Both the position numbers and the translations under genes were made by a program. Positions 5,158-29,700 of a stretch of DNA of 31,866 nt are shown here, piece by piece (the stretch's first letter is position 1; every line of letters starts with the position of its first letter). The DNA is from a virus (taxonomy: Duplodnaviria; Caudoviricetes). The stretch spans positions 1-31,866 of the IMG/VR virus record IMGVR_UViG_3300020457_000045; one strand, written 5' to 3'. Below the pieces are notes generated by a model. It ran no database searches and was not told the origin of the DNA. It saw only the letters and a program-made list of their open reading frames with translations.

Positions 5158-6693
5158 TTAGAACTCGATTACGATTTTGATGTCTTCAATTTGGTCTCCA
5201 GCACGAGTAATTGCTCCTCTGTTATCTATGTAGATGACATCGCCTGAGTTAGGATCAACTTCTGCTTTTGCATAACCATTAGTAAATGCCATACCTAGGT
5301 CATACTCAGCATTATTAATAACCCTCGTAGAGGATCCAGAAACAATGGGGAAGTTAATATCTGGGTCAGCAGATGCACCTGAGATAGCACCCACAATTGG
5401 GTTACCACCTTCAAACTCGATTAAGTTACCAGTGAATTCAGGGAAGATACCATCAATTCTATTCTGATAATACTTAAGCACTTTAGTAGTTGCATTCCAT
5501 GATATAACACGTCCTCTTGCCGTTACCTGTTGACCACCAACAGTACGAGACTGGGTTATAATCTCGTCAGTCTGGAAGTTTCCAGTAAACGTAGGTGCAA
5601 ATATTGCAGCCTTTGTGGCACTTAATGTCAGGTCAGACGTTAATTCCTGAGTACCAAACTTGTTAGGATTAATTACCAAACCAATACGACGATAGTCGTT
5701 GTCAGTTGGGAAGTCACCAGATCCTTCATCATAGGTGAACTTAGTGTTAATCATCACACGGAAACCACCCAACTCAGTAGCAGGGGATGCTCCATGACCA
5801 CCAGTAGGAGGTATAACAACTTCAACGCTACCACCAGTACCTGTTCCAGCACCAATACCGTTGACTTCATCGATGATTACTTTACCAAAGGTGTATCCAG
5901 ATCCACCAGATGTAACAGTAGCAGAGGCAATACGACCACCATCTACAACAAGTGAAACCCTACCACCAACTCCGTCTCCTTTAATAGGGACGTTTTCATA
6001 GGTACCGTTGTTATAACCTGCACCAGATGATCCAATAACAATAGTATCAATTTCTCCACCGATAGCATCAGCTACAACAGCAGTGTCAAACAACACTGGC
6101 ATGTATTCGTTGGAGAAGAATTTTAAGACTTGACCAACAGGGATCGTAAACATATACTTCCAACGGTAACCATCAGCAGTTGTGATAATTGAAGTGGAGG
6201 TGCCAGTAGGCTCAACAGTACTAGGTTTACCATTAGGATCACTAGGACTGGTGCCGTTGTATATGCACTTGTAAACTTGATAAGACGAGTTAACAACGTA
6301 GAAATCTGCGTCGTATAACTTCGTAGCACCTGACGATGCCGTTTTAGTCGAGGAGTAATCATGACGATACATATCATAAACATAACCCAGACCACCTGTG
6401 GTTTGCTCTGGGGGAATCCAGTCAGTACGACGGATAACCTGAATGGTGTCATTTGCTAACACCCTCTTCAGGGAGATCATATCCGAATAGTCATCGGAAA
6501 ATTCTTGGAATGAATCTACTGGGTCTGGAGGTGCGTTTTCGTTATCCCATGGTTGTGGTCTACCGATAAACACATAAAGGCGATCCCGACTAGTACCCGC
6601 TTCCAGGTCAGACTGAGTAGGATTAGGCCCTTCAAGTGCCTTTCTGAACCTTTCGGCAGTAAATATTCTAAATTGGTCGGTAAGTAATGCCAT
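5158..6693 (-). CDS. gp8: baseplate wedge subunit gp8 (T4 gp8-like), 511 aa
   Basis: Motifs LYVFIGRPQPW, YDMYRHDYS, FYVVNSSYQVYKCIYNG, DGYRWKYMFTIP and C-terminal SGDVIYIDNR...QIEDIKIVIEF are characteristic of cyanomyophage gp8. Position next to vrlC fits. Confidence 0.93.
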   Translation of the reverse strand: MALLTDQFRIFTAERFRKALEGPNPTQSDLEAGTSRDRLYVFIGRPQPWDNENAPPDPVDSFQEFSDDYSDMISLKRVLANDTIQVIRRTDWIPPEQTTGGLGYVYDMYRHDYSSTKTASSGATKLYDADFYVVNSSYQVYKCIYNGTSPSDPNGKPSTVEPTGTSTSIITTADGYRWKYMFTIPVGQVLKFFSNEYMPVLFDTAVVADAIGGEIDTIVIGSSGAGYNNGTYENVPIKGDGVGGRVSLVVDGGRIASATVTSGGSGYTFGKVIIDEVNGIGAGTGTGGSVEVVIPPTGGHGASPATELGGFRVMINTKFTYDEGSGDFPTDNDYRRIGLVINPNKFGTQELTSDLTLSATKAAIFAPTFTGNFQTDEIITQSRTVGGQQVTARGRVISWNATTKVLKYYQNRIDGIFPEFTGNLIEFEGGNPIVGAISGASADPDINFPIVSGSSTRVINNAEYDLGMAFTNGYAKAEVDPNSGDVIYIDNRGAITRAGDQIEDIKIVIEF

Positions 6694-8636: not shown

Positions 8637-8950
8637 TTAGACGATTACTATATTACCAACCATTGCAGGATGGAGTGTGCATTGATAAACATAGGTTGTG
8701 CCAGCAGCAACATTTTGAGGCACAGTATAATATTGGACTCCTGTAGTAGATCCAGTAACACCAACAGATAAAGCAGCACCACCTGCTGACTGTCTCAATT
8801 CAAATGGGTGTGCTACACCTGATGAATTATTAAATCTGTATGTAAATCCTCTATAAACATAGATTGTTGGATTATTTGCTGATGAATCCATACCACCACC
8901 TGAGAATTGATAATCAGACATGGTAGGTGCAGTAACTGTAAAACCAACTG
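8637..8950 (-). other. cupredoxin/plastocyanin-like C-terminal domain with type-1 copper ligand pattern
   Basis: NPTIYVYRGFTYRF...H(8808-8810)PF...YQC(8679-8681)TLHPAM(8661-8663)VG gives His ... Cys-x2-His-x2-Met. Confidence 0.75.
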
Positions 8951-10118
8951 TAGGACTTACTACAGGATCCCATGAAGTACCATTGTATATGATATTGTTA
9001 TTATTGGCAGGAGTAGAAGAGGTATAAAGATCTGCGTTTACAGTCAACGTATCTGCTGTTGCAGCAGTTGTAACTCCATTACCACCCGCTACAGTTAATG
9101 TAGTAGTTGCACTTCCAGCAGCAGTTGTACCAGAATCACCAGCGATTGTCTGGAATATATTCTGTGATACGTTTGGAGCGTCATTGGTTATTGTGAGGTT
9201 ATCTCCAGAGATAGCAGTAGATACTCCAGTGCCACCAATGATATTAATAGTAGCAGTAGTGCTACTTGCTGTCTTATTTCCTGAATCACTTCCAATTACA
9301 CCATAGGCATTTTGGTTTGCATCACCCAATGCCCCTGTCATGTTTATTGTGAGGGTGTCTCCGACGATTGAAGTCGAGATTTCAGTGCCTCCCGCAATTG
9401 TAAGAACATCAGTAGGAGCACTAGCAGTAGTACTACCAGTGTCAGCAGTGATTCCTTCAAATAAGTTTTGAGTTGTACCACCGCCTCCACCAGATCCTGC
9501 CTCATCATTAGCAGGCTCCCATTTAGTATTTGAAGCGGACCATTTAAGTACTTGACCATCACTCGGACCTCCACCGACTGTCATATCTACGTCATCAAGC
9601 ATCCCTACACTACATGTCGTGTCTATTATTTTAGTCCACGCTGTATTAGTTGCATAGTATGCAGCAGCCTCATCGATAACAACACCAAACATTCCTTTAT
9701 GATCAGTAAATGCTGGTAAATCACCAGATGTTGCAAAGTCATTAGACCATTTTAGTTTACCATCAGCACCATCAATATAGGTAAGTGCCGATCCAGTGTT
9801 TGCTGCCCAGAATTTTATATCACCACTACCATTTGGTTGTATAACTATGTCTCCATTGTTAGATGATACGATTTTCTGACCTGCTACATCTACATCAGCT
9901 GTAAATGCAGAGAAATGACTCTCAGCAAACTGAGCACCATTCCATATTAGTGTTTGTCCATTCGTAGGAGCACCTACGTTGACTTGAAGATTGGTATCGT
10001 TACCTAGATTGGTGTAAATCTCATCAATGACTTGATTCAATTTGATAGCACCATCTCTCAGACTGTCGCCAGTGCCGTCATTAGCGGTAGTACCAATACT
10101 GAGTGTTTGTTTAGCCAT
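8637..10118 (-). CDS. baseplate-attached fibre protein, 493 aa: T4 gp9/gp10-like N-terminus, fibre repeats, C-terminal cupredoxin-like domain
   Basis: N-terminus MAKQTLSIGTTANDGTGDSLRDGAIKLNQVIDEIY matches the T4 gp9/gp10 N-terminal motif (DGTGD.LR.GG.KIN.NF.E.Y). Short fibre motifs GQTLIWNGAQF and GQVLKWSASNTKWEP. Ends HPF...YQCTLHPAMVGNIVIV. Confidence 0.85.
   Translation of the reverse strand: MAKQTLSIGTTANDGTGDSLRDGAIKLNQVIDEIYTNLGNDTNLQVNVGAPTNGQTLIWNGAQFAESHFSAFTADVDVAGQKIVSSNNGDIVIQPNGSGDIKFWAANTGSALTYIDGADGKLKWSNDFATSGDLPAFTDHKGMFGVVIDEAAAYYATNTAWTKIIDTTCSVGMLDDVDMTVGGGPSDGQVLKWSASNTKWEPANDEAGSGGGGGTTQNLFEGITADTGSTTASAPTDVLTIAGGTEISTSIVGDTLTINMTGALGDANQNAYGVIGSDSGNKTASSTTATINIIGGTGVSTAISGDNLTITNDAPNVSQNIFQTIAGDSGTTAAGSATTTLTVAGGNGVTTAATADTLTVNADLYTSSTPANNNNIIYNGTSWDPVVSPTVGFTVTAPTMSDYQFSGGGMDSSANNPTIYVYRGFTYRFNNSSGVAHPFELRQSAGGAALSVGVTGSTTGVQYYTVPQNVAAGTTYVYQCTLHPAMVGNIVIV
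9036..9470 (-). repeat. three ~50-aa tandem fibre repeats
   Basis: QNLFEGITADTGSTTASAPTDVLTIAGGTEISTSIVGDTLTIN / QNAYGVIGSDSGNKTASSTTATINIIGGTGVSTAISGDNLTITN / QNIFQTIAGDSGTTAAGSATTTLTVAGGNGVTTAATADTLTVN. Confidence 0.9.
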
Positions 10119-10139: not shown

Positions 10140-10147
10140 TATTTAGG
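10140..10147 (-). promoter_or_regulatory. late promoter candidate (CCTAAATA) overlapping the YHYH-gene stop codon
   Basis: Minus strand CC-TAA-ATA, 21 nt upstream of the fibre ATG at 10118. It has the TAAATA core of the T4 late box. Confidence 0.45.
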
Positions 10148-11735
10148 TACCATCATATGATTGTAAGGTAGAATCCATAGTAGCTGCAGTACTATCGAAT
10201 CTATTAGCAGTGCTTCCACCATCACCAGCACCAGTTACTGTCAATATTGCTGCTTGTGAATCTAATGGTGAGTTAGAAGCAGGTACTGGTGCACCATTTG
10301 GACCAGATATACGACATCTAAAGCGATACCCAGTCATATAGGGTAGTGCAGTTAGAGAATAGGTGTCTGTTGTAGCACCTGTGATGACAGCAAATGCGAA
10401 ACCACCGTCAGTAGATCTATACCACTGGTATGATACAGGTCCGTCCTCTGGTATTACTAACTTCTGTATGTTGAAGGTAGCAGTTTGACCAGCATTGATA
10501 GTAACATTCTGTGGTTGTAGTGTAAATTGTAAAGTTGGAGGGATTGGAGGGTCTCCACCGTCTCCACCATCACCACCAGATGATACAGGTGCTACAGTGA
10601 ACGTGGTGTCAATAGTTTCTCTAGTTGTATTACCAATGATATAAGGGAATTTTGTTATATCATTGTCATCAGGGTCTACTGTTAGGAAATATGCGTAGGT
10701 TCCAGTGGGATATTCAGGTGTAAAGCAATATCTACCGTTATGAATATCTAAATCTCCACTACCTTCGACATATTCATAGTCTTCCATGAGTGCACCAGCA
10801 GGTGGATTGTCAGAATCCGTGCCATAATCGGGTCTACCAGGTGCTTCTTGGTCTTTAATACCGTATTGAGTCCTCATTGTACGAGTACCACTCAAATTAT
10901 CGAATGGATCATCATATCCAAAAGGACCATAGATGGGAAATCCATCAAAACATATGCCAATTATCTTAGAATGACCATCTGGATGACGAATATTATTACC
11001 ATTAAACTGTGTATTACCATAATAATCGTTATAACTTGCCATTGTTGAATTAGTTTTCCAACAATCTAAGAAATGTGGGTCATGATAATGGTATTCACCT
11101 GACTGTGTGGGATGTCCACCACAACTATCTTCTCCAGAATTAACAAAAGGTGCATCTCCAGCAGCAACCCAACTGAATCCAGCAGGAGGATTGAGTCCTG
11201 ATCCAGCAGAAGGGTTAAAAATAGCAACTCCATTGCCAGCAATTCCTATGTTCCCCAGTGGAGTTTGAGTTCTTCCGTTTCTGCTATCCCAATACTCATA
11301 TGTACCATTAACAGGAGTTATCTCCTGTGTATCCATGATCAAATCTAATCTATCATCTGCTGCCAACCAGCACTCACCAGCAATAGAAGTAAACTCAGTG
11401 CCTTTGTAAAGATATCTTAAGTGTAATCCATCACTAAACTTAAACATTAAGTGGTCACCAGGTTGAATATTATTCCCAGTGAATACAGTAAGATCCGTTA
11501 CTGACAGTGTTATTGATCGAATGAATCCATCATGTGTATAAACATTGGAGTCAAACGTCCTAGAAGTACCAAATGTGCCACCTCTATACAAGAAATCGTG
11601 ATCGAAATCTTGCTCAGTAGGTACATTAGGGTTGTTATCGTTAGGAAACGTGCCATGAGACACTGGCGATGGTAATCCATTGGATGCCACCGTCAAGACT
11701 TTAGTCGCTTCGTTGTAGGTTGCTGTTGCACTCAT
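10143..11735 (-). CDS. YHYH-domain virion protein with C-terminal Ig-like domain, 530 aa
   Basis: LTVASNGLP, TPLGNIGIAGNGVAIFNP, CGGHPTQSGEYHYH, HSKIIGICFDGFPIYGPFGY and GDLDIHNGRYCFTPEYPTGTYAYFLT are YHYH-family motifs. An Ig-like domain follows a Gly/Pro linker. Confidence 0.88.
   Translation of the reverse strand: MSATATYNEATKVLTVASNGLPSPVSHGTFPNDNNPNVPTEQDFDHDFLYRGGTFGTSRTFDSNVYTHDGFIRSITLSVTDLTVFTGNNIQPGDHLMFKFSDGLHLRYLYKGTEFTSIAGECWLAADDRLDLIMDTQEITPVNGTYEYWDSRNGRTQTPLGNIGIAGNGVAIFNPSAGSGLNPPAGFSWVAAGDAPFVNSGEDSCGGHPTQSGEYHYHDPHFLDCWKTNSTMASYNDYYGNTQFNGNNIRHPDGHSKIIGICFDGFPIYGPFGYDDPFDNLSGTRTMRTQYGIKDQEAPGRPDYGTDSDNPPAGALMEDYEYVEGSGDLDIHNGRYCFTPEYPTGTYAYFLTVDPDDNDITKFPYIIGNTTRETIDTTFTVAPVSSGGDGGDGGDPPIPPTLQFTLQPQNVTINAGQTATFNIQKLVIPEDGPVSYQWYRSTDGGFAFAVITGATTDTYSLTALPYMTGYRFRCRISGPNGAPVPASNSPLDSQAAILTVTGAGDGGSTANRFDSTAATMDSTLQSYDGT
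10236..10535 (-). other. Ig-like domain of the YHYH protein
   Basis: TLQFTLQPQNVTINAGQTATF...VSYQWYRSTDGG...ITGATTDTY...YRFRCRIS...SQAAILTV fits an I-set-like pattern. Confidence 0.8.
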
Positions 11736-11740
11736 TGAGT

Positions 11741-11748
11741 TATTTAGA
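11741..11748 (-). promoter_or_regulatory. late promoter candidate (TCTAAATA) overlapping the giant gene's stop codon
   Basis: Minus strand TC-TAA-ATA-actca-ATG, one mismatch to TATAAATA and 5 nt before the YHYH start. Confidence 0.5.
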
Positions 11749-14700
11749 TGTCATCAAAGATTTGTGTTGGTAAGAAGTTGCTTAGGACTGTAGCACCAGT
11801 CTGGACGCTCAATACAGCAGATAGTGAGTAAACTGGAGTTGCACCAGATGCAGTGATCGCAACACGATATTCGTCACTGTCGTCTGCCTGTGTAGTATTT
11901 GGAGTATTGTATGTTGCTTGGTTAGCACCAATGATGTTACTCCAAGTCTGTGTGCCATACTCCTTCTTCTGCCACTGATAATTCATTGTCTGACCGTTAG
12001 TTACGGTAGAGACAACTGTGAATGCAGCAGAGTAACCTTGGTTAACTGTTACGTTAACTGGGTCTTGTGAAATTGCGATTGTACCAGGATCGATATCTCC
12101 AGCACCACCTGTGTATTCAGATCCTTCGCCAGCGAGTACGTCAAATCCACCGTTAATAGGAGCACCTTCAGGAGTTGTGAAACTGTCAGGGACTTCATTA
12201 TCGATAGCAACTGTTGGTAATGCGTATCCGATACCAGAAGTCTTAACATCAATTCTAGTAACACCCATCAATGCCTTGATACGAGCGTCAAATCCAGAGG
12301 AGGAGATAACGTCAACGTTAGGACGTGAAGTATAACCATCACCAGAGTTGGTTAGGTTAGCATTTGTAATCTGTCCAGAAGTGATAGCAGCGATAGCAGC
12401 AGCATTTCTACCCTTAACAGATCCAGTGTACTCGAATGTGATTAGTGAGTTTGAAGACTCAATTAGAGCAACCTCACGAGCAAATTCTTCACCGTCTATT
12501 TCAAGTTTGTCTCCAGCTTCGATTGGTGGGACAACGGTTGCTGCGATAACGTCTGCGTCAGATCCAATGTATGAGAAACCAACGAATGTTGATCCCGCAC
12601 GTGGGACTTCAGCGAAGATTAATCGTGAACCAACGATCTCGTATGCGAGTCCAGGTTCCTGTATAACACCGTTAAGTGATACGATAATGTTATTCTCAGG
12701 ACGGATAACGTTAGATGAAACACCTTCAGTTAGAGTCAAGGAGTAGAATAATCCAGATCTCTTAAGGTTGAAGGAAGATCTCAATGAATCAAACTCATAA
12801 CTGATATCGTCTAACTGACGTAATTTACCAACGTAGTAACCAACGAATTGTGATCCGATTACAGGTGGCTCAGCAAACTGAATCTTGTCTGAGAATGCAA
12901 CGTAAGAGTTGTTACCGCCAGGAGGCTGTAGGATACCATTAACGAATGCGAGTAAGTGACCAGCTGGATCTGGGAAGTATGCTTCACCATTAGAGATAGT
13001 TAAGTCAAACTGTGTTTGCTGACCATCAAATCCTCTGAAGTATCTGTCAACACGACCTTCGAGTGTGCGAGCAGATGAAACTGCACCACCCCATCCGTAG
13101 TCGGAAATTACTGACATATTATCAACGAATACCCCAGAAGCATCTTCTACCCAAATTTCAGCAGTGATACCAACTTGCTCGATTGATACGACCTTAGCGT
13201 ATGATGAGTAAGTTGTTGTAGTTACGTTAGTAACGTTAGCATATATGCTTGGGAAGTTAGATCCAAGATCGATCTTACCAATGTTGTTTGTGCCTTGAGT
13301 TACAGCATTAATTGTTTCACCTGTGCCTACTGGAACTACGTTACCAACCCAAAGTTTGTGTATACCGTAGTTAGGATCAGTATTTTCAAGCTCTAATCCA
13401 TTAATGTATTTTGTTACAGTTGCTTTGAATCCTGGATTCTTCTCAGTTGTACCTTGTAGGAGTGATACTTCATCACCAACACGGAAGGTATCATTAGTGC
13501 CGATATCAACGATTGCAACTCCAAGATCTAACTCATATACCGCAGTACCATGTATGTACTGGTTAAGTTGAATCTGTGTACCAGTTATACCCTTAACTGA
13601 AAGGATGTATGCAGTAACACTACCGTAGATAACGTCACCAGGATCCCACTGAGCATCAATGGTTTCAACATCAATCGTGATACGACCACCAGTATTACCT
13701 GTTAGTGATCCAGACTTATTGACATAGTTGTCAATGTATCCTTCAGTATTTGATGCTTTAGAGAAGAACCAATCACCTGTAGCAAATGCACCTCTAGAGA
13801 CATTAAGTAAGAATCTATCAGTTGGGATACCAGCAGTACCTGTTGCACCAGATGTCTGACCTTCTAATACATCATTTTGATTAATAGTACCAGCGATAGT
13901 TTGTAGTTTAACTAATGATGTACCATCAGTAGACTTCTTAGTCTGCATTACAAAACCAGTATTTGATCCAGCACCTTGGACTTGGACAGTCTCACCATTC
14001 AAGAAGACTTCATACTCACCACCTGATGTGGTTGACATTCCAGTGATAGGATAATGTGTAAAGATCTTACGGATAGTTGCTTCATTATCCTGAATTCTTC
14101 CTATCTCAGACTCAGCACCCGAAACACTACCGTAGATAACGTCAGCAGGATTGAATCCACCTTGGATTGGAGTATCAGAAGGATCTATAGCAAATACTGG
14201 AGCGTTACGAGTAATACCACTTCTCTGTACAACTGCCATGATTTGTGATCCAGAATTACTTGTATCAACTTGTAATACTCTGAATCTTCCATCGTGGATG
14301 TAAGAAGCACCAATTTCAAACCACTCAGCAGTAGCAGTCAAGCAATAGAAGAATGGTTGACCTGTCAATCCACTTAGGGATGTATCAGATGCAGGAATGT
14401 AACTTAATACATCACCACGTCTGAAGTTGTTAGCACGATTAATTCTAATTCTATACTCAGCACGATCAAATCCAACTTCAACTTCAGGAGTTAGTGTAAC
14501 CAATGCAGGGTCAGTATTATAATCCCAACCTACCTCATACTTGGTAACTCTGTTAATAGCATCAGTAGATGCAACGAATGTAACTCTTGCTTCTGTTGGG
14601 AAGGAAGATCTTTCTAGAGCAAACTCGATTGGGTTAAGTGAAGAGTCAATTATAAACTCAACTGCTTCCTGATTCCACTCAAGTCTGCCAGCTGGTTGCC

Positions 14701-17700
14701 ATACATCATAGTTGTCCCAAACACTATCAGTACCAACAAGATACATGATACTCTTAATATATTCTCTACATCTTGTTAGAGCGAATAAGATCTGAGATCT
14801 AATAACATCTTGGAATGCAATGAAGTTACCTTCACCATCAAACCAGTCTTGTGTCATCGCAAATGCACCAGCATTACCACCTGTAATCAAATCATAACGG
14901 ACTGCCTTAAGGACATCATTACAGAAGTCAATAGTTAAGTTAGTAGATGGGTAACTTGCTTGTGTATCTGAGAATGCTCTTCCAGCAATTGCTTGCTGAT
15001 TAAAGAGAATCATGTTAGCGATAATCTTGTTATTATATGTGCCAGCACCTAGAGTAGTTGACATACTATCGAATAATGTATCGATAGCAGACTGGACGTT
15101 ATAACATGTACCTGACTGGTATACAGTATTGGTATATGCAGATGGGAATGTCTTAGTTACACTATTAACAAGATAGTTTTGATTGTTATTTGCTGCCTGA
15201 GATATAGTGTTGATGTATATGTCAGCAATTGTATTAATTGCAGAAGCAGTTTCATTACATGTACCGACCCAGTTACCATTAGAATCTTGACCACCACCAG
15301 ATACATCATATGTAATTGTTAGATCTCTAGCAACTACATCTGGAGTGTACTTGACGGGCCATACAGTTGGTAATGTGTAACTTCTGTTTGCAATATTACT
15401 TGGATTAGTAAATGCATCAGTTGCGAAGTTAACAAGAGTAGTAAGCTCGTTTTCTACGTTTAGAGATTCATTTCCAGTGTATGCAGGATCAACTAGACGT
15501 GATCTATAGTAATCAAGATCAGATCTTGTAGGCCATGCCCATGACTTAACATGCTGTACTGGTAGTTTCTGACCATCAGCATAGTCTGTAATACGTGGAT
15601 ATGTGTGGTTAGTCTGGTTACTATCCTGTGAGCATGTAAAGGTTAGTGAATTACTATCAATGATAACAGCATCATCAGTACCAAGAGTATGATTTGCAAC
15701 AGTTAGAGTTAACTGACCACTTGTAGGCTCATAATATGCGTCTGTAGGTGTTAATTGTGTACCGTCATTAGCAACAGTAATACAGTTGGATAGAGCAGAT
15801 ACAAAGGTGTGTCTATAATTACCACCTTGTATTAGAGCACCACCATTAGCACTTACAAATGTATGCTGATATGTATTTCCAGCTGGTGACTTACCAACGT
15901 TAATAGTAATAGTGCCGTCTTGTTTCTTAAGACCCTTCTTCTTAGCAGATACGAATGTATGAGTACCAAGGAATGTGGAAGGAATCATATTGAATCCTAA
16001 TACACCAACATCGAATGTTGTGGTAGATACATTATGTACTGGTAACCACTGATTACTTGCATGATCAGTAGGTCTTGGATATGTGTGAGGAGTTTCATCC
16101 TTATCAAGATCACATGTAAATGCCAATGAGAAGTCATCAAACATTACATAATCATTTGCCTTAACAACTCCATTAGTATCAGCAGATACGAATGTGTGAC
16201 GATAACTACCACCACCTATTACAGCACCAGCAATAGCACTTACGAATGTATGATCGTATAGATCAGCAGTAGCAGCGACATCTACATCAACAGTAATCTT
16301 ACCAGACTGTCTATGTAAACCGTTATGCTTCGCATCAGCAAATGTATGTGTATAGTTACCACCAACGGTAACACCGTTTGTAGCAGCAGAGTTGAATGTA
16401 TGAGTATACTCACCACCAACAGTAACAATAGATCTCTGGACGTTAGATGCGTTAGCAGAAACAAATGTATGGACTGTTGTATTTGTAGAAGGAATGTCTG
16501 TTAATACTTGGACATCGAATAGATCACAATTAACATTAGAGATCTTTAACCATCTTCCACTTGAAGGATCAGAAGTCCTTGGATATGAATGATTAGTAAT
16601 GTTGTTATCTTTACCACATGTGAAGGTTAATGAATTGTCTGCAATCTTAACATACTCACCGTTAATGAATCCATTACCCACTAGGATACCGTTTGCAGTA
16701 GCAGACTGGAATACATGAGTAGTAGTATCAGTAATAGCACCTTGACCACCGTTAACGTTAACAGTGATTGTTGTGCCAGATACGGCAGTGATGTCTAACT
16801 CTTGATTGTATGCATAATCAGCACCAGATGTTGTAGCAGCACCAGCAGCACGTGGATATGTCTTAGTAGTTACGTTTCCATCTCCACCATAATCACAAGT
16901 GAATGTTAGTGAGTTAGGTAACAATCTAATAGTATCATCAGTAGTCAGACTATGTGATCCGATTGTCAATTCTAAAGTACCAGATGTTGGGTTGTATGCA
17001 GCACCCGAAGCAGTCTTCTTATCTTTAGGTACAGAGAGTGTCATGAATCCAGTAGCAGGATTGTATGATGCAGTCTCTGTAGAGTATGTGTTATTAGCGT
17101 TTTGGAATACGTGAGTTGTAGTGTTAGAAGATGTACCAACATCAACTGTAATACCATCAGCAGTAACAGCAGTAATCTCAACTCTATTATTGTATGCAGG
17201 GTCATTACCTGAAGCACCACCCCATCCTGTAGGACGTGGATACCAGTGATCAGAATTTTGTGAATCTTGATCACAACGGAAGACCATTGATTTGTTTGCA
17301 ATCTTAACGTAATTACCAACCTTAAGTTGATGGGTACCAATGGTCATTGTTAGAAGACCAGTATTAGGTACGTAAGATGCAGCACTTACTCCATAACCTT
17401 TAGCACGTGATTCTCCAACATCAAGTTTGATTGTTGAATTCTCCATCATAATGCCACCATCAGCAGCACTTACAAATGTGTGTGCGTAAGATCCACCACC
17501 CTTAACTACACCTCTAATAATTGCACCTGTTGCAGCAGATTGGAAGTTATGAGTTGTTGTGTTAGATGATGTACCAACGTTAACTGAGAAGGAATTAGCA
17601 TCAATATAAGTAACACTTAACCATGTATTATTAGATGCAGGATCTTGCTTTCTAGGATATGCATGATCGCTTCCAAAACTATCTTGCTGACATCTGAATA

Positions 17701-20700
17701 CGATAGACTCATCCTTAATCTGAATCTTATCTCCAGTGACAAATGGATGACCAGCAATTGTCAATACCAACTCACCAGATCCAGGTGTGAATGATGCACC
17801 TGTAGGTGTGAATGCATTTACAGATCTTACAAATGTATGCTGAGAAGTATTAGAAGAAATACCAACATTAACTACAACGCTATCAGCAGTAACTGATTGA
17901 ATTGGAATAGAAGTATCATAATATGGATCATCAGCAGTAGCATTTCCTTGACCATTTGCACGAGGATAGAAGTGCTCAGTTGCATTATCATCTAAAAGAC
18001 ACTTGAATACTAATGACTGATTTTCAATCCACAATGATTCATGTGCAACCTTAAGTCCATTAGGAGCAGCATTCATAAATGTATGAGCATATCCACCACC
18101 AGAAATTACAGCACCAGCAGCAGTACCACCAGCCCAGTTGTGTGTAGTTTCATCAGTAATTGCTCCCTGATTTCCGTTAACATTAACTGTGATTGTTGTA
18201 GCAGTCTTAGCAGAAATTGGTAGGGCAGTATCATATGCATAGTCCTTACCATTTGCGGTAGAAGCACCAGATGATCTTGGATATGTCTTCTGAGTTGTGT
18301 TACCATCACCATTAAAATCACAAGTGAATGTTAATGAATTAGGTTTGATCTTAATGCTATCACCAACATCTAATGTATGAGATCCAATGGTAAGTTCCAT
18401 GTTACCTGTTGTTGGATTGTAATTAGCAGCCGTTACGTTATGTGTAGACTGAGGTGAAGTACCTACATTGACTTTAAATGTATCATAAGTGATATCACTG
18501 ATTGGCATCCACTTATTAAACTGAGGATCAGTTGTTCTAGGATAAGTCTTAGTGGATGTATTTCCATCCATTCCACAAGTGAATGATAATGAATCTTGAC
18601 CAATCTTAACTCTGTCACCAATAGTAAATCCGTGAGCAGGAACTGTTACAAGTAAAGTACCAGCAATAGGATCGTAATCTGCATTAGTAATAGTATGAGT
18701 GGATCCACCTTTATAACCATGTGGTCCAATCTTAAGTGTCATATCACCTGTAGTAGGCTCATATGTTGCATCAGAAACAAGATAGTTAGCACGAGTTGTA
18801 GTACCTATCTGGACGTTAAAGTTATTACCAGCAACACCAGATACTTCTAACCACTTATCATATGCAGGGTCAATTCCTTCACGAGGATAAGAATGATTAG
18901 TAGCATTGCCATCCATATCACAAGACATTGTGAGTGAGTTTGGCTTCAGCTTAATTCTATTACCATTACTGAATGGGTTATTCAATACGGTTAGTGTTAA
19001 TACACCAGTCTCAGCATTATATGCTGCACCAGATGCTGTGTATTCTGCATGTCCTACATCCTTAATTTCTATAGAATGATCGTATGCTCTATCTCTCTTA
19101 TGAGTTACACCACCACCAGTAGCAGAAACAAATGTATGATTAAATGATCCACCTTTTCTGATTGTACCTCTTAGGATTGAATTAACCTTAGCAGTTACAA
19201 ATGTATGTGTGGAAGTATTTGTAGAAGGTACCTTATCAAGTACTTGGACTCTGAATGTATCTTGAGTTACATTAGAAATTGTTAACCACTTGCCAGATGC
19301 AGGATCACCATGTCTAGGATAAGCATGCTCAGTTGCATGGTCATCTTTAGCACATGTGAAGATCAATGCATTATCTTCAATTAATATTTGCTCACCATCT
19401 AACATTCCATGATCAGGAATTGTGATGGTCATAACACCAGATGCACCACTATAAGTTACATTGGTTGGTGTCTTACCTACAGCAGGTTTGAAGATATGAG
19501 CATGATTAGAAGATCCACTAGGTGAAGAATTAACGTTAACAGTTATAGTGCTATCATCAACAGCAGTAACATTAACAGCATCACGGAATGCAGGATCGTT
19601 AGCAGTTGCACCACCAACACCATTTGCTCTTGGATATGTGTGGTCAGATCCATGACCATCTTGAGCACATGTAAATGTCATTGAGTACTCATTGATATAG
19701 ATGCTATCGTTAACTTCTATACCATGATCAGGACCAACAGTAATTACCATATTACCGTTAGAAGCATTATATTCTACATTCTGAGGATCGAAACTTACAA
19801 ACTCAGACTTACCAACAAAAATGTCAATAGTGTTTTCAGTTGCATTCTCTACAGGCTTCCACTTACCACTAATAGGATCGGAAGATCTTGGATATGTCTT
19901 AGTTGATGTGTTACCATCCATTGTGCAATTTAATGACAATGCATTATCTGCAATCTTAATAAGAGATCCATTATCCATTCCATGATTAGTAATAGTAAGA
20001 GTTAGATAACCTGTCTCACCATTGAAATCTGCACCTGTAGGTGTGAATGAATCAATAGTTGTTCTTGGATAAGCATGTTGTGATCCATTCTGATCCATAT
20101 CACATGTAAATGTGACTGCACCATCAGCAAGTTTTACATGCTGACCTTGCTTCAATGAATGAGGACCAATATTAAGCTCAAGATGTCCTGTGTAAGGATC
20201 ATAAGAAGCATCAGTAGGTGTGAATTGTGCAGCAGCAGTTGTGCCAACATTAAGCTCAAATGTATCTTGAGTTACGTTTTCAATTTGTATCCACTTACCA
20301 CTGATAGGATCAGTACCTCTAGGATATGCATGGTCGGATGAATTATCATCCATTGTGCAATTCATATGAAGAGCATAATCATCTAACTTGATGAAGTCAC
20401 CGTTAGAGAATCCATGCTTACTAACTGTCAATGCCAATACACCTGTTGAAGGAGTATAAGTTGCTCCACTTGGAGTATGTCTTGTTACACCATCATCAAT
20501 AATTCTTAGAGAATTGTTATATGCTGGATCAGTAATTCTAGGATATACGTGCTCAGTAGAATTACCATCTTTAGAGCATGTGAATGTTAGAGAATTAGCA
20601 GCAATCTTAATACTATCGTTACCCTTCATCATTGTTGCAACAGTAATACTCTTAGGTACTGCTGATACAAATGTATGAGTAGAAGTGTTAGAAGAAGGTA

Positions 20701-23700
20701 TGTTGAATAATACTTGAACGTCAAATGTATCTTCAGTGACGTTACTTACCTTCATCCACTCATCACTGAATGGATCATTCTTTCTAGGATAAGAGTGATT
20801 AGTTTGGTTACTATCCTGTGTGCAGGTCATAGTAACGAATCCATCTTGTACCTTAATTCTGCCACCATTTTGTAGACCATGCTTCGCAGAAGTAATGGTC
20901 ATAACACCTGTAGTTGGATTGTATGCAACGTTGGTTGGTGTTAATTGTGCAGGAGCAACAAATTTATGACTGTAGTTACCACCAGTTACAACTTGTGCTC
21001 TAGTAACACCATTAGGAGTAGCAGATTCAAACTGGTGTAATGTTGTGTTTGTAGATGGAATATTCTCAAGTACTTGGACATCAAATGTATCGTCTGTGCA
21101 ATTAGAAATTGTTATCCACTTACCACTTACAGGGTCACTACTTCTTGGATAAGAATGAGGACTACCTAGACTATCTTGTAAACATCTGAATGTTAAAGAG
21201 TTATTGTTAATCTTAATGCTCTCTCCATCATGGAATCCATGATTAGGAATAGTAAGAGTCATTATACCTGTTGCAGGTAGATAGTTAGCATTGGTTACAG
21301 TATAAGTCTCAGTACCAGGAATGAAGGTATGAGCATACTGACCACCAGCAACTAATGCACCACTTACTGCACTCTGGAATGAGTGAGTTGTTGGGTTAGT
21401 AATTTGTCCATTACCAACGTCAAGTGTAACAGTACCAGTTTGTCTGTGTAATGAATTAGATACAACAGAAACGAATTGATGATCGTATACATCATTAACA
21501 GCAGATTTACCAACTTGGACAGAGAATCCAGTCGTACTTACATTACGGATTGGTAACCACTGTCTATATGTTGGGTCAGATCTTCTTGGATAAGTATGGT
21601 TTGTTTGATTGTTATCTTTACTGCAAGTAAATGTAATTGCATTCTCATCAAATCTTACAAAGTCACGTGCATGATAAATTGCACCTGTTTGGATATTATT
21701 GCAAACGTGAGTTGTAGTATTAGAGATAGGTGAGTCACCATAAAGATTACCAACCTGTAGATCATATGTGTTACTACCAATATTAAATGCCTTTAACCAC
21801 TTACCAGAAACAGGATCAGAAGGTCTTGGATATAAGTGATCAGTTGCTTGACTATCTTTATCACATCTGAATGTTAAGACGCTATCTCTTATCATCAACA
21901 TATCACCATTCTTCACATTGTGACCATTCTGAGTTAACCTTAATATACCTGTAGTAGGATAGAAGGTGCACATTGTAGGTGTAAGCTCATTAGGTCCTAA
22001 GAAACTATTAGAAACCGTAATCTGCATACTACCCTCAGTTGGGTTGTATGAAATAGTAGAAGGTGTATGATCTGTTTCACCAATTTCCCATACAGGAATA
22101 TTAGTATCGTAGAAGTGATCCTTCTTATGAGTTATGCAATTATTAGTTGCAGATAAGAAGTTATGAGTTGTAACATGAGTAGAAGGTATTACATCAAGTA
22201 CTTCAACGTTGAAACTATTAGCAGTTGTATCTTGTATCTGTACCCACTTACCAGCAACAGGGTCTGTTGCTCTTGGATATAGGTGAGCAGAAACTACAAT
22301 ACCAGTTACACATTCTGTATCAGCAGAGATGAAATTATGAGTACTTGTATCTGTGATAGCACCTTGACCACCATTGAAGTTAACAAATACACTGTCAGCA
22401 GATACTGAATCTATTGGTAAGTATGTGTTATATGCATAGTCCTTACCATTTGAAGTTGCAGCACCTGTTGCACGAGGATATTTCTTCTGAGTTGTATAAC
22501 CATCACCATTGAAATCACATGTAAATGTGAGAGACTCAGGTGAAATCTGAATCATATCATTGGTTGTTAAACCATGATATTGACCAAGAGTTATTTCTGC
22601 TACACCTGTTGTAGGATTGTAATCTATAGCAGTAGGAGTATGTCTTGAAATATCTTTCTTACAGCTGAATGATAGAGACTCATCAGCAATCTTCACATAT
22701 GAATATGGTAAGAATCCATGATTAGAAACATGGAATGTAAGATGACCTGTATTAGGATCATAATCAACATGAGATGGAGTATGAGTAGTAACAGCAGATC
22801 TAGGATATGTGTGGTTACTTGAATTACCATCAGCAGCACATCTGAATGTTAATCCATTATCCTTAATTCTTACGCTATCACCAGCATGTCTAACACAGTT
22901 AGCTACAGATGTTGAATAGGTATGATCATAAATTCCACCAGTTACAATAGCTGCTCTATGGACACAATTAGGTGTGCAACCAACGAATGTGTGTAGAGTT
23001 GTATTACTTTGAGGAATATCAACTAGTACTTGGACATCAAAACTTTGTGTAGTTACATTAGTAACTTCAAACCAGTTATCTGAGAATGGATCAGAAGGTC
23101 TTGGATAGGTATGTACTGTAGCATGATTATCTAAACCACAAGTAAATTTCAAGGAGTTATTATCAATCTTGATCTTATCTCCATTTTCAAATCCATGACC
23201 ATCTATGGTTAGGTTAAGAATACCTGTTGTTGGATTGTATACAGCACTTTCTGGAGTAAATCCTACATGTGGTATAAAGGTATGATCTGTAGTATCAGAA
23301 GATTGACCAACATCAAGAGTTATAGTTCCATCCTTCTTAGTGATTCCACCAACGGTACCTTGGACAAATGTATGAGTAGTAGTGTTGGTTGAAGGAGCAT
23401 AACTTAATACTTGGACATCAAATGTGTAAGTACTTACATTAGATACTGCCAACCATCTATTTGCATATGGGTCAGTTGCTCTAGGATATGGATGATTAGA
23501 TCCATTGTTATCTTCTAAGCACTGGAATGTTACAGCACCCTCTTTAAACTTAACTTCATCACCATTACTCAATCCATGAGCAGCATCAGTAGTGACACTC
23601 ATAATACCTGTTGTAGGATTATATGATGTACCTGTAGTTGCAGTTAAAGGTGATCCATCATGAATGATTGGACATGGCTTGTTATAGAATGGGTCAGCAC

Positions 23701-26700
23701 CACCGTTACCAGAGAAGTTAGATCCTGAAGATCTAGGATATGGGTGTAGTGACTGATGAGCATCTAAGAAACAAGTAAATGTTAGAGACTCTTTTGCAAA
23801 TCTTATACTCTGTCCATTACGAAGATTGTGATCACCAATAGTGATCTTCATGTGTCCTGTTACAGGAGTAAATTCAGCAGCAGTAACTAAGAATGGAATT
23901 TCAGGTGTGCGTCCAACAAAGATATCAAACTCATCCTTAGATACATTCCTGATATCCATCCACTTATCACTCATTGGATCAGTAGAACGAGGATATGCAT
24001 GGACTGTAGCATTGTTGTCCATTGAGCAAGTGAAACTTACTCCACCATCAGCAACTTTAACATAATCACCAGCAGAGAATCCGTGGTCAGTAATCTTCAA
24101 TCTCATTAATCCAGTCTGACCATTATATGATGCAGTGGATATACTATGATCTGAAGATTGACGAAGTGTTGTCTTTCTATCTGTTGTTAATACTAACTTA
24201 CCATCAGCAGGAGTAAATGTAGCACCATTTACATCATATTGTTGCTCTGGTGTCTTACCTACGTTAACAACAATAGCATCATTAGTTACCCCAACAATAG
24301 GTGTTGGCTCATTGTGAATTGGGTCAACGTGACGAGGATATTGATGCACTGAAGCATGATCATCCATTGCACAAGTAAATGCTAATGATTGAGATGCAAT
24401 CTTAATGTTAGTACCTTGAGTCAAACCATGACCAGATCCAACTGTCAATGTTAATTGACCAGTAGTAGAGTTAAATGATGCAGCAGTTGGATTCCAACCT
24501 ACAGTTGGTGACTCTCCAACATTAACAGTAAATGTGCCACCAGGAATATCAGATTCAACAACATCTAACCATTTACCACTGCAAGGATCAGTAGATCTTG
24601 GATATACATGCTCACTATAATGGTTGTCCATGGAGCATGTAAATGTCATGGAGTTATCAAAGATTTGTATCTGCTCACCCTTAGTGATCTTATGACCAGG
24701 TACTGTTAAAGTAAGTAGACCCTTAGTAGCAACATATTCTGCATGAGATGCAACGTGCATATCTGCACCAACAAATCTATGCTGACCGATATCTAATTCT
24801 AATTCACCATCATTCTGATTATAAGTTGCATCAGATACGTTATATTCAATCTTAGGTGTCTGACCAACGTTAACAGTGAAACTATTATATGTTACTGCTT
24901 CTACTAACATCCAAGCATCACCAGCAGGATCCTTTGCTCTAGGATATCCGTGCTTAGTAGAATGATTATCTTGAGCACAAGTGAATATTATAGATCCATT
25001 CTTGATTTGTATTTGATCACCAGTTTGGAATCCATGTGCAGGAGACTGACATACTAATAGTCCAGTATCAGGATCATATGTAGCATCAGTTATAGTATGC
25101 ATTGTAGAGTCAGTCATACCATGGTTAGGTAGAGTGATTGACATACTACCATTCTCAGGATTGTATGATGCATCCTCTACGGTATGAGCTGTTGCTCCAA
25201 CTGCAATAACTTCTACAGCAGCATTACCAGCTGGGTCACCAGATCTAGGATAAGAATGAGTTGAAGCATTATTATCTTGATCACATGTGAAGTTTATAGA
25301 GTTAGTTGCAAGTGATAAGAAAGTACCAACGGTATGGTTGTGTGATCCAATATTGATAACCATATCTCCATTACTGCTATCATAAGCAGCATGTGAAATA
25401 TCGTATGCAATCTTAGGTGCAGGACCAACATTAACTGTAAAGGTGTTAATAGCAGCAGACTCACCAGCAACTAGAGATCCACCACCAATAGCATATCCAG
25501 CGAAGTTAGAAGAGGCGAATATTCCACCACCACCTGTTAGACCAGTATAGTTAGCACCAGGAGTTGATGCTTCACCAACAGGTGTACCATCAATCCAAAG
25601 TTTTACTCTACCACTACCAGTACCTAAGTTACCACCAATACGAATCTCCCATACTAATTCATGATCACCATCATCAAAGTATGTTGATAGGTTACTGATT
25701 TGTAGGTCAAGCATTGCAAGACCATTATCATTATGGTTTGCACCACCACTGTAACTATTGGTGCCATCACCAGCACGAAGTCTTAAATATGTGCCACTAT
25801 CTCTAATACCAAACCATGTTCCTGAAGTAGAATCACCTGCTTCAAATAAACAACAATCTATTGGGTTAGAAGGTAGTTTTGTAACACAACGGAATACTGC
25901 ATCTTCATCAGTTACAATTCCAGTGCCACTATCAGTTGTAGAAATCTTATCTTCACCAGCAATGAATGATCTAGTTACAAGACTATTAGGTTGTGCAACA
26001 ATAATACCTGTATCAGCAATAGAATTGAATAGTGAATTATTAGGTCTTGGGACAGCATCATAGAATCTTTGATCAACATTATGACCAGCAGCATTAGTAA
26101 TAACCTGACCCTTCATGGCACGAATGGCATATTCTTTTGCCTTATTCATGATCCAGATGGTCTCAGTAGATTGAGCAGTAACGTGATCTAAAGCACCATT
26201 ATAAGTTGTATAGAATTCAGCAGCATACTGCATCCAGTTGTTACCACCATACTTAAGGTTAAACGCTAATGATCTTAGAATATCAGTAACGTCATGGACA
26301 CAGTTAGCTGGACCTCCAGGAATTAGGAGATTAGGGAATTGTACAAGTCCCGCAGCAACCGCTTGCTCCGCAATATAGCGTATATTTCCATCAATAGCAT
26401 CTCCACATTTCTGATACATCACTTCACGTGGGTTTTGCTCATATGATTGTACTGGTGTTGTTTGTAAATCAGTACCTTCAATGTAGTCTCTACCAAATGC
26501 ATTACGCATGGTAAGAGTCATGATATCTCTTAATATCTTAACTACAGTTATAGATGCTTCCCACTCACCCTCAATATGCTTAAGAGAGTTATCTTCTGTC
26601 TCAATATACAATGCAGCAGCATCATATGTCTTCTCGTTACAATCAAAGCGAAGGTCATGAACCGCTGCCTCGATCATATCAAGTACGTCATCTTCACAAT

Positions 26701-29700
26701 TAACTGGACCTCCAGGAATCTGTAGATTTTCATACTTGGACAAGTCATTCATAATTGCTACGCATTCTTTAGCAATTATTCTTCTATTATTCCAAATAAC
26801 ATCAGCAGCGTCAAGGTATCTGTCGTTAGAGTTTCTACCAGTTGGACCTTGAGGATATGCTTCAGTATCAAGTACTATATTCTCATCTCTATATGCTGCT
26901 CTTGCAGTGTATAGAGGAGTATAATATTCTTCCTGAATATATGAAGGAGCAATGGCACCTAATTCAGAAGCAGCTTCACCTGAAGATAACAATAGGTTGT
27001 TGATTGCTTTCAAGCAAAGAAGCTTAGTATGCTCGAATGCATCAAGCATTGGATTAAGCTCAGCTTCAACATGAATCACATTTTGCTGACTATCAAGATA
27101 CTTATCAATAACTGCTTCAGTCTGATATGTGCCACCTGTAGCAAGGTCAGCAATTACAGCAGGAAGTATAAAGTCCTTGATATCTCTTTCACAATATGGT
27201 TGACCATATCCAGGCATCTCTAGGAAGTCAAATACGACACCATCGATATCCTTCTCATACTTATTCTGAATGAATCCAGCAACCTCTTCTGCAATATAAT
27301 CTCTATTCTTCCAAAGTTGGTAACCACCTTCTCTGAATCTCTGATCCATAGGAGCAACAACCTTAAGTAAGTTACTACCTAAGAGGTTAATCTCATCAGT
27401 TGTATTAGATGAAGCAGGTGATGCAAAATTATTAGGTATTCTCAACCTAGTACTATATTCTCCATTAAGATCAGTAGATGTGGTTGTAACAACATCTATA
27501 CAGATCTTGAATACTTCATTCCATGTATAGAGAGATTGTAGAATCTCAGCAGCGATGTGATCTAACTTACCACTAGCAGTTAAGTAAGTTCTTGCTGTGT
27601 AGATTGTATGGAAGTCTCCACCTTCTTGAAGGTCTTTAATAAGTGCTCCAAGGATGTAATCCTTAGTATCCCTTACACAAAGGTTAGTACCACCATATAC
27701 GTTATTACCAGGATCATCACCACGGATAGTAAAGTCTGGGAATGCAACCTTCATTCTACCGACTGCTTCCTCAGCAATCCAAGCAGCGTTAAGGTCAATA
27801 ATTTCAGCACATCTCTTCTGCTCTGCTCTACCAGTATCAACGTCTTCTACAATAATATCTCTTTCTGCGTAATCAACAGACTTAGCAGTTGCAGATGAAG
27901 AATTCTGACCACAGAATGTAGCATAGGTATCAGTAGTTGAGCATACAAATGGTGCTTCACCATTTAGACCAAATACGATCTTATCATCAGTATAATCAAC
28001 TGTATTAGGTGAAGTGAAGTTTGCTTGACGATCACCTACTCCTTTTTTAATTACGAAGTTATCAATATGACCAGCCCAACTATTTGCTAAGTTAAAGTCT
28101 GCTCCAACATATGCACCACCATATAGGTAATCATTAGTGTCAACGTAGTTAGATCCAACTTGTGATCCATTTACATATGCCTGAGTAACACCACTTGTCC
28201 TACAGACTGAAATATGATACCAAGTACCTGTGGTAGCAAATACATCTGTACTAAGGATACTATTGGTCGTGCCGTTATATACCTTTAATTTCTGTCCATC
28301 CATCAAGATATTCAAACCTTGAGCAGCAGATAGTCTTCTGAAGTCTACAAGTACTTGTGTGCCAACATTTGAAGCAGGACGGATCCAACCTTCAATTGTG
28401 AAGTCTCCAGTGCCAAATTCAAAGTCTTTACTCTCTGTAGCAACTATATGACCGTTAGTTGGAATATAGATGGATTTATTTCCTTCTAATTCAGCTTTCT
28501 TGATTATTACACTTTGAGAGCAATTTGTGTTTGTGAGAGTTGAGTTAGTAAGATATTCACCATTTTGGAAGGTACCAGTAATTGGACCTGCAAATAACCA
28601 CTTAAGACCAGAATTAACTCCAACTGCACTGAATACTGCATTAGATGTAATACCTTTGATTTGATCGTTAGTTATGAATAATCCTGTTGACTTATCCTTA
28701 TATGCAAGTTTTGTAGTCCTTACAGTCTCATTAGCAACAAATGTGCCGTCAGAAACAAGTGCAAGAGCATTAACGTTGGTTAAGTTACCAGCAGTCATTG
28801 CAGTTGTTGCAATACCACTTAAAGTGTCAATATAAGATTTAACGTTAGCACAGTTGTTAACATCCTGATTATTACCAGATGCATAGTTTGCGTCGTAAGT
28901 ATTAGCAGGAGCAACACCACCAGAGTAAGTAGTAGGATCATTAAGGTTATAACCAGCAGTATTGAGTTCCTTCCAATACATTAGGTTATTGATCGCTGAA
29001 TACATTAATGTCTTTGCAGACTCAAATGCCCAGACTGCTTCTGCCTCTTCTCCAACAATACCGTTAGTTAGAGGGACACCAGCATCATCGAAGAATTTTT
29101 TAGTAAATTCAACGATATTATAGTTACCACCAGATCCTACATCTTCAGAAATAGCATCGATGAAATATCCAAGGTCACGACGACATTTCTCTTGATGAGG
29201 TGAATATGTGCCTTCTGTTTCATCAGGAAGTTCAGTTAGAGAAGAAATATTCAATGCTTCGTCTATAAACTCCCAAAGTGTTGTAAGTGCAGATTGTACA
29301 TCTGAGCAATTCTCAGAATCAGTATTAGAGGTATTAGAGCCAGCAGTGCCATAAGCATCGTTAGGTGATGGGTCAGCAGTGATTGTAAGGTCTTGATAAG
29401 CAACCCAAGAGTCTCCAGAGTTAACAGCGTTAATTGTGCCTGAATAACCGTTAGCAAGAGCAACTAAACAACGATCTTTAGCCTTTTCGTATGCAAAGCG
29501 AGTTTCGGCCGCTTGGGCATTAACGTAGGTTAAATTACCGTTAGTATCAAAGAATTGTTGGATAAACTTACGAGCATAACGATTACCACCTGCATACATG
29601 TCAATAGTGATTGCATCGATGAATAATCCGATATCTCTCTTACATTTGTCATCTGAAGGAATAGAAGATGAAGGATACTGAGTCTTCATGTCATCGAATG

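Follow-up and report, generated by a model that had tools for sequence, protein, structure and literature searches.

A putative virion protein of a tailed virus (Duplodnaviria; Caudoviricetes) contains 31 copies of one domain, nested within each other to a depth of eleven levels, which are predicted to fold as small beta-barrels in a branched, single-chain tree; we put the probability of this reading as a whole at roughly three in four. The protein is encoded in the window studied here, the whole 31,866-nucleotide stretch of DNA in IMG/VR record IMGVR_UViG_3300020457_000045. This window is a single contig with a series of large minus-strand genes, the longest of which is a giant gp7-like virion structural gene (11744..31864), a single open frame that is cut at its 5' end by the window end and encodes 6,706 amino acids within the window (6,706+ overall); this gene and all other features located below lie on the minus strand. 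The copies, of ~103 residues, occupy residues 2139-5441 of the giant protein, and the nested region (15542..25450) resolves into 31 barrel domains, with 10 leaves, 21 hosts and 7 branch nodes. Numbered by order of opening and with children in brackets, the tree reads 0[1[2[3[4[5[6[7[8[9[10,11]],12[13],14[15]],16],17],18[19[20[21[22]],23[24[25[26],27]],28[29[30]]]]]]]]].

A tree of this form had been proposed in an initial annotation made from the sequence alone, and our parse recovers it. The leaf profile used here was built on ten uninterrupted copies chosen by eye, the same ten leaves as in the tree of the initial annotation, which are 101-115 residues long and share 29-60% mutual identity. 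Over residues 2120-5450 this profile finds 31 A parts and 31 B parts of the four-part domain A-B-C-D, together with 31 YPR tripeptides, and there is no YPR tripeptide in the remainder of the giant protein. In a stack-free segmentation that allows free jumps along the leaf profile, fragments break off and later resume at complementary profile positions. A pushdown parser supplied with the leaf-only profile returns brackets for domains 1-30 identical to those first proposed, scoring 2254 compared to 1642 without nesting, and a first-in-first-out reading breaks down at 19 of the 29 resumptions. When children are excised in a script, all 21 re-joined hosts align as leaves do (98-112 residues, 84-129 bits against the leaf profile), 20 of them over nearly the full profile. 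Homologous domains interrupt each other, and the hosts are complete once the inserts are removed.

The details of the tree are likewise largely as first described. Domains 10, 11 and 26 each lie within 10 hosts, the root counted, giving eleven levels, and domain 1 spans 3,191 residues. Domain 12 is split in its core, at profile position 47, by a complete domain 13 (22298..22633), and five HTF closers are found at about 16160-16471. The A-B-C-D order holds for domains 1-30 and fails for the root, domain 0, which is circularly permuted: it opens with a C strand alone (25409..25450) and closes with D, then A and B (15542..15820). Re-ordered, the root scores 99 bits over profile positions 2-102, and its ends are built alike in the related loci L005, L011 and L013.

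Could the brackets be an assembly artefact, or scrambled degenerate repeats forced into order by the parser? The parser does build nests on shuffled segments as well, and the leaf profile alone cannot tell the short C and D motifs from background. A naive token parse of the top 31 hits of five short motifs left 17 mismatches and 8 domains open, with A, B and YPR clean, because the C and D motifs are too short to be scored by themselves. Kept in their natural order, however, the 59 segments score 2215, above every one of 200 shuffles (mean 1959, standard deviation 56, maximum 2081), and when the same 31 domains are strung head to tail, 40 of 40 trial arrays come out at depth 0. Agreement of 29 of 29 resumptions with the top of the stack follows from the parser itself and was not counted as a test. 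The concern about mis-assembly raised in the initial annotation is answered by independent records. Four related loci (L001-L004), 89-96% identical across the query, carry 31 YPR each and a tree identical to that of the window. Contigs from 4 of the 24 listed runs, belonging to 4 studies of which none is flagged as a possible source, span all 30 bins in colinear order and without indels; among the 15 joints listed of 65, the short side is below 30 letters in all. The repeat copies are just 60-81% alike in DNA. Relatives, contigs, shuffles and linear controls refute this explanation, which we consider extremely improbable.

Relatives also capture the gain or loss of single domains. Three loci (L005, L012 and L070) have the window's tree minus domain 13, and L011 has it minus domains 10 and 13, the missing domains being absent as clean whole units. 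In a plain alignment of subtree 7, absent children appear as gaps in mid-host, and host 12 is uninterrupted in L005, L011 and L046. The re-joined domain 12 is 62% identical, gap-free, to the intact L005 domain, and each half of host 12 alone selects the same intact domain as its best match, in L005 and in L011. Domain 13 itself resembles leaves 26 and 30 and not its host. As the window and its closest relatives, L001-L004, have domain 13 and three more distant lineages lack it, the simplest reading of the sequences is that this domain is probably a recent insertion.

Nesting extends well beyond these close relatives, with trees whose size and shape vary widely among related phages. Other trees, with 6-30 YPR motifs each, are present in a further 19 IMG/VR loci, and those of 8 cultured cyanophages have 3-19 such motifs. 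The suggestion that gp7 homologues of other cyanomyophages be parsed in the same way proved fruitful: all eight cultured cyanophages fetched parse as nested, including P-SSM4 with 11 domains and P-RSM6 with ~19. A profile search returned 693 clusters at E up to 0.001; among the best 150 of these, 65 are at least 700 residues long, 59 of the 65 are parsable and 49 of the 59 are nested, although these parses were not checked singly. Parses are unreliable at the ends of the truncated loci L007, L010, L032, L037-L040 and L047, and some loci show additional root "domains" that lack YPR and are spurious. Even within the sample there is a deeper case, as the tree of L013, taken over its whole open reading frame, holds 26 domains with a depth of 10 below the first domain, one level more than in the window.

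Several relatives show other arrangements of the same barrels. More distant phages (L024, L008, L016 and L028) have barrel trees among helical domains, without the permuted root or the ConA-like host discussed below, and in P-RSM6 the barrels form several small trees apart from each other. Barrels circularly permuted to D-A-B-C are apparently common in relatives (L025, L026, L029 and L031). P0001, a protein of 4,764 residues, parses into six units in tandem, of which five reach four levels, so that nesting and tandem repetition occur together. In P-HM2 and Syn1 (L027 and L030), nested barrels lie in a different gene, annotated as a tail fibre protein, and their presence in this second gene suggests that the module moves between virion proteins.

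Insertion does not occur uniformly along the domain. Over 13 proteins, insertion sites cluster near profile positions 21, 26, 47-56, 70-75, 85-87 and 96-98. Core similarity is higher between domains of one site class than between others in the same genome (0.417 compared to 0.376; 0 of 1000 shuffles), which fits recombinational copying of host-site-plus-child units as a candidate mechanism. A GG motif at 51 of the 56 site-86 junctions was dropped as independent evidence, as it is possibly part of the host.

Structure predictions were made for two subtrees, and in both, bracket partners and not linear neighbours are predicted to build the barrels, as the initial annotation had anticipated. For 29[30], AlphaFold was given an alignment of 27 natural host-and-child stretches selected by the parse, and the model reached a mean predicted local distance difference test score (pLDDT) of 89.9 and a predicted template modeling score (pTM) of 0.83. 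Two fold searches with 50 matches each placed 47 and 48 matches on the child alone (residues ~19-140) and one each on the host (1-220 and 1-218); the remaining 2 and 1 were ambiguous, and none covered a crossed range. Subtree 7, residues 2543-3508 of the giant protein, was modeled as 966 residues from 5 sequences, at a mean pLDDT of 73.4 and a pTM of 0.55, with other models at 52-67. In a first fold search of this model, 43 of 50 matches each cover one bracket-defined domain (leaf 10, 26; leaf 13, 8; host 12, model range 482-708, 5; host 8, 27-453, 2; leaf 11, 1; host 7, 1-966, 1) and 7 are multi-domain or unclear; in a second, 44 of 50 cover one bracket-defined domain. The second search is led by host 8, which as one barrel matches the phi92 endosialidase barrel with a Z score of 8.0, a root mean square deviation (rmsd) of 2.3 and 82 aligned residues over model range 28-454. 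Host 14 is represented by one low-scoring row (Z 3.2, model range 724-933). Eight of the nine domains in the 966-residue model are assembled as barrels by bracket partners, and hosts 7, 8, 12, 14 and 29, 5 of the 21 hosts, join discontinuous parts in these single-chain models. Two alignments for 12[13], A1 and A2, aligned every leaf either with the child or with a crossed pair, for which reason neither was folded.

The predicted fold resembles the E1-FCCH/riboflavin-synthase-like barrel, a likeness that bears on fold and not on function. Matches include the FCCH barrel of E1 enzymes (PF16190; UBA1 and UBA6), the endosialidases of phi92 and K1F, the N4 tail and the lambda tail tip, with Z of 7-8, rmsd of 2.2-2.7 and 76-83 aligned residues. 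UBA1 illustrates the level of agreement, with a middling Z of 7.9, an rmsd of 2.6 and 79 aligned residues, within which the model has the same barrel fold. These proteins have single copies of the barrel and are 10-20% identical in sequence to the phage domain, and we take their barrels to be inserted domains themselves. In sequence, E1_FCCH (PF16190) matches leaf 10 at 20 bits and the whole region at 25.4, below the gathering cut-off of 29.5, and weak FCCH-type hints in the ESM Atlas are in line with the predicted fold. Motifs C, YPR and HTF set the phage family apart from E1-FCCH-type barrels. No SBHM chain, the fold of a nested system considered below, is listed among the fold matches, which does not exclude SBHM.

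The bracket parse specifies which halves belong together, and it is here that a second alternative must be weighed: the gene may have grown by nested insertion while hosts of the same type swap strands, yielding a compact interdigitated rod or body and not a clean tree. At mid-domain breaks, covariation between halves favors the bracket partner (19 hosts, rho of 0.70, 0 of 2000 shuffles), which argues against swapping, as does the finding of host 12 intact in relatives. Crossed pairing, including a crossed 12/13 pair, is seen in none of 200 structural-match rows over the two models, although most rows are of leaves. The two halves of domain 1 are separated by 3,090 residues and, as a predicted complex, score 0.39 compared to 0.01 for the best control, with runs agreeing in at least 95% of contacts and partner pLDDT of at least 63. 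The mark for such complexes is reached by 116 of 157 solved pairs and 2 of 215 mismatched pairs, only 18 of the 157 and both mismatches lying at or below 0.60, and likeness tends to carry the two halves of any split domain past the mark; the score gives weak support to a predicted pairing of the domain 1 halves as bracketed.

Several observations weigh against the tree as parsed, and some of them favor swapping. At most resumptions, several open domains need the same part, and sequence type alone does not fix which same-type host receives the returning strand. In the other three site classes (39, 17 and 56 hosts), covariation gives no signal (rho of 0.04-0.07, 636-782 of 2000 shuffles). There is also precedent, as passages of one report describe swaps among the recursively inserted domains of Si3, an insertion in cyanobacterial RNA polymerase (PMC11515920). 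The models span no more than 4 levels and 11 of the 31 domains. Their alignments are tied to the parse, and that of the 966-residue model holds natural gaps that hint at pairing. Domain 9 has no fold match in either search of that model. Sequence searches of the PDB found no true relative and no solved structure of the domain family, the kelch matches being due to chance, and the fold matches are middling (Z 7-8) and silent on function. On balance, we judge a swapped, interdigitated body to be unlikely and retain the bracketed tree.

In the window, the bracketed tree can be laid out as two main branches upon a trunk. Trunk openers (24758..25396) are domains 1 (25396-25190), 2 (25177-25109), 3 (25090-24842) and 4 (24835-24758), and their closers follow in reverse order (15824..16300), as domain 4 (16300-16211), 3 (16204-16157), 2 (16156-15920) and 1 (15913-15824). 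The middle part of domain 4 (20611-20477) lies between the first main branch, domains 5-17 (20621..24748), and the second, domains 18-30 (16307..20470), whose leaves are 22, 26, 27 and 30. In the first branch, domain 7 (21344..24229) is a three-way node with children 8, 12 and 14, in four pieces (24229-24158, 22882-22796, 22123-22073 and 21433-21344). Its first child, domain 8 (24139-23888 and 22924-22883; overall 22883..24139), surrounds domain 9 (23884-23648, 23326-23273 and 22951-22925), which holds leaves 10 (23333..23635), missing in L011, and 11 (22952..23251), both within 10 hosts. Domain 12 (22124..22774) consists of 22774-22643 and 22291-22124, on either side of leaf 13, which is of a long subtype akin to leaves 26 and 30; domain 14 (22060-21983 and 21658-21440; overall 21440..22060) surrounds leaf 15 (21976-21668). 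Leaves 16 (21295-20996) and 17 (20935-20636), at 20636..21295, sit in the last loops of domains 6 and 5, respectively. The second branch has its own three-way node in domain 19, again in four pieces (20215-20060, 19096-19043, 17431-17396 and 16411-16361), as well as leaf 26 (18098..18433), within 10 hosts, and domain 29 (17077-17018 and 16669-16430; overall 16430..17077) around leaf 30 (17008-16676).

The tree appears in turn to be enclosed by a ConA-like domain and three helical ones, for a total of ~15 levels, the outer four of which are less firm than the inner eleven. The apparent host of the whole tree is a ConA/LamG-like domain (25448..26029) with a likely last strand after the root (15541-15494). 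ESM Atlas feature matches of 0.93-0.94 to Laminin_G_3 clusters are a lead only for this domain, for which neither Pfam nor a home-built LamG profile gave a match. Farther out, three helical, weakly phycobiliprotein-like domains (26030..27340) open at about 27340, 26821 and 26419 (residues 1509, 1682 and 1816), with no closing helix near the openings. Three stacked closing helices (15044..15469) are found on the other side of the tree, at 15469-15404, 15262-15197 and 15109-15044 (residues 5466, 5535 and 5586). A profile built on 9 examples taken from other loci ranks these third to fifth in the whole protein, with scores of 10.9, 6.3 and 22.8 in the order of the positions given, compared to 0.4 for the next best, and L005, L011 and L013 agree on them. 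A broader home-built helical profile had picked up barrel motifs and was unable to score the closing helices, and the narrower profile replaced it.

Upstream within the giant protein, the window holds an intact LamG/ConA domain (27950-28480; PF13385). Helical domains there also nest in themselves: at 29237-29887 (residues 660-876) and 28820-29210, one such domain starts at residue 660, makes way for a complete copy at residues 703-863 and resumes at residue 886. Helical repeats at 26030-26431 and 29237-29761 have weak Pfam Phycobilisome matches, with E of 2.9e-06 for the whole part and 0.01-0.08 singly.

The genomic setting points to a structural role in the virion. The giant protein matches PHROG 701 and 18802 (virion structural protein), and its homologues in P-SSM4 and P-SSM2 are annotated as gp7. 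T4 gp7 is the sole PDB sequence match, a weak one (E of 0.54), to a stretch with a T4-gp7-like motif at residues 170-275 (31040..31357). The giant gene is followed by genes for a YHYH protein, a gp9-like baseplate/tail-fibre connector (8637..10118; PF07880, PHROG 677), a wedge subunit and the gp8 baseplate wedge protein (5158..6693; PF09215, PHROG 438). The YHYH protein, encoded directly after the giant one (10143-11735), has an Ig-like tail and is 52% identical to its P-RSM6 counterpart. A T4-like gp7 gene would come after gp25 and gp6 and ahead of gp9 and gp8. The window covers the downstream side of the giant gene, with the gp9- and gp8-like genes, and the upstream neighbors lie beyond it; in P-SSM4, P-SSM7 and P-RSM4, homologues of the giant gene come after gp6. 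From the gene cluster and the PHROG and RefSeq labels, the nested protein would belong to the baseplate region. P-RSM6 shares gene order with the window and is 64% identical across the first 558 residues of the giant protein, and a query piece of the nested region matches 170 phage records, all of the marine cyanophage type as judged by name. The source is likely a P-RSM6-like cyanomyophage, with a marine cyanobacterial host likely from its named relatives.

How such a protein might be built and what it might do can be outlined from these data. Recursive insertion, as first claimed, is supported by sequence, relatives and models, and none of the three outcomes that the initial annotation named as refuting it was seen; the branched three-dimensional shape and the late folding of outer domains that were claimed with it are predictions. 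The permuted root and the models suggest that the ends of the barrel lie side by side, so that a whole copy could plug into any of ~six loops of another copy without breaking the barrel. The chain would run outward along a branch and come back to complete each host, and folding would accordingly proceed from the tips inward, with leaves first and hosts closing on the return. If barrels are built from bracket partners, as predicted, the shape would be a tree, with two main branches upon a trunk of five barrels. Growth and change of the tree likely proceed by recombination, through rare whole-domain insertion at a loop, then through exchange of a host site plus its child between paralogous copies, with selection removing unbalanced products.

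A role as a virion appendage is likely, given the baseplate gene cluster and the fold matches to inserted barrels of phage tails, from which presence in the virion, position and ligand would be extrapolated. The tree likely projects from the baseplate and may contact the host cell surface. Possibly, if doubtfully, it is a host-recognition antenna, a single-chain dendrimer of ~15 levels and three folds in which recombination that preserves the brackets rewires seven branch points and ten tips, with tree shape tuning adsorption and host range. Alternatively, the tree may fold as parsed and serve as a scaffold or spacer, for bracing, drag or display of its lectin-like and helical neighbors, with no host binding of its own, a serious contender to which we give somewhat less than an even chance. 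The conserved residues (G, H, C, YPR, D and H, present in 156-174 of 174 domains) are core-like, as a scaffold would have them, and the surrounding ConA-like domain could be the binder. A metal site made up of the invariant Cys, His and Asp residues may also be envisaged. Wide variation in the tree among related phages, on the other hand, is what is expected of host-contact parts, and barrels from phage endosialidases and tail tips are among the closest folds, that of the K1F endosialidase presumably binding sialic acid. Between a multivalent host-contact role and a scaffold role, the odds are about even.

The principle of recursive self-insertion is known, and the proposal that self-insertion at such depth is undescribed stands for the depth, branching and virion setting, relative to the literature searched, and not for the principle itself. 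The closest likeness is Si3 (RpoC2, SBHM/HABAS), in which copies of one small beta domain are inserted into each other, with discontinuous hosts and multi-insert nodes. Passages of one paper describe eight SBHMs in Si3 of cyanobacterial RNA polymerase, four of them formed from distant chain parts (PMC10895346), and passages of another speak of recursive insertion of the domains, some of which are swapped (PMC11515920). The main text of a 2026 survey, covering 2.7 million classified domains, gives six-level nesting in cyanobacterial RNA polymerase as the most complex case (PMC13114784); that main text does not contain the words "phage," "viral" or "virus," and the supplements and Zenodo data could bear on the record. 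Si3 thus has 8 motifs in ~640 residues, 4 of them discontinuous, at six levels and with partly swapped strands, whereas the phage tree has 31 copies in 3,300 residues, 21 of them split, at eleven levels (~15 with the outer domains) and with seven branch nodes. The phage tree also differs in its fold, in its residence in a virion gene and in varying between close relatives, and its domains sit in a gene of the phage baseplate cluster and not in the trigger loop of RNA polymerase beta'.

Simpler nested proteins offer further comparisons. In the T4 gp18 tail sheath and in bacterial flagellins, domains are nested one within the next, with the chain running out and back and three to five unlike domains forming one stack without branches. 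Passages of a review of sheaths mention "long insertions" only (PMC9230969). The giant gp7 proteins of T4-like cyanophages (P-SSM4, P-SSM2 and P-RSM6; PHROG 701) are homologous, occupy the same gene position and parse as nested too, with smaller and shallower trees, and are annotated as structural or tail-fibre proteins only. The first genome paper on P-SSM2 and P-SSM4 reports repeats in tail-fibre-like genes, and nesting is absent from its relevant passages (PMC1079782). We found no published account of nesting in the giant proteins of these three phages, nor any description of self-nesting in a phage protein, in a literature search that covered few subscription papers.

The usual picture of a repeat protein is one of beads on a string; the giant gp7-like protein would instead be a tree in a linear chain, with about twice the six levels reported in the main text of the survey (PMC13114784). 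It makes testable how a chain keeps a dozen unfinished domains apart over 3,000 residues, how close homologues avoid mispairing and how many insertions a barrel tolerates, three being found in domains 7 and 19. Such a protein shows why profile searches mis-annotate nested proteins, and it offers a natural multi-site scaffold for protein design. For the abundant marine cyanophages, nesting provides a structural reading of their unexplained giant proteins and a candidate for their host-contact variation. If the antenna reading is true, it would represent a second route, besides linear fibres, by which viruses evolve an appendage and would be a template for designed branched proteins.

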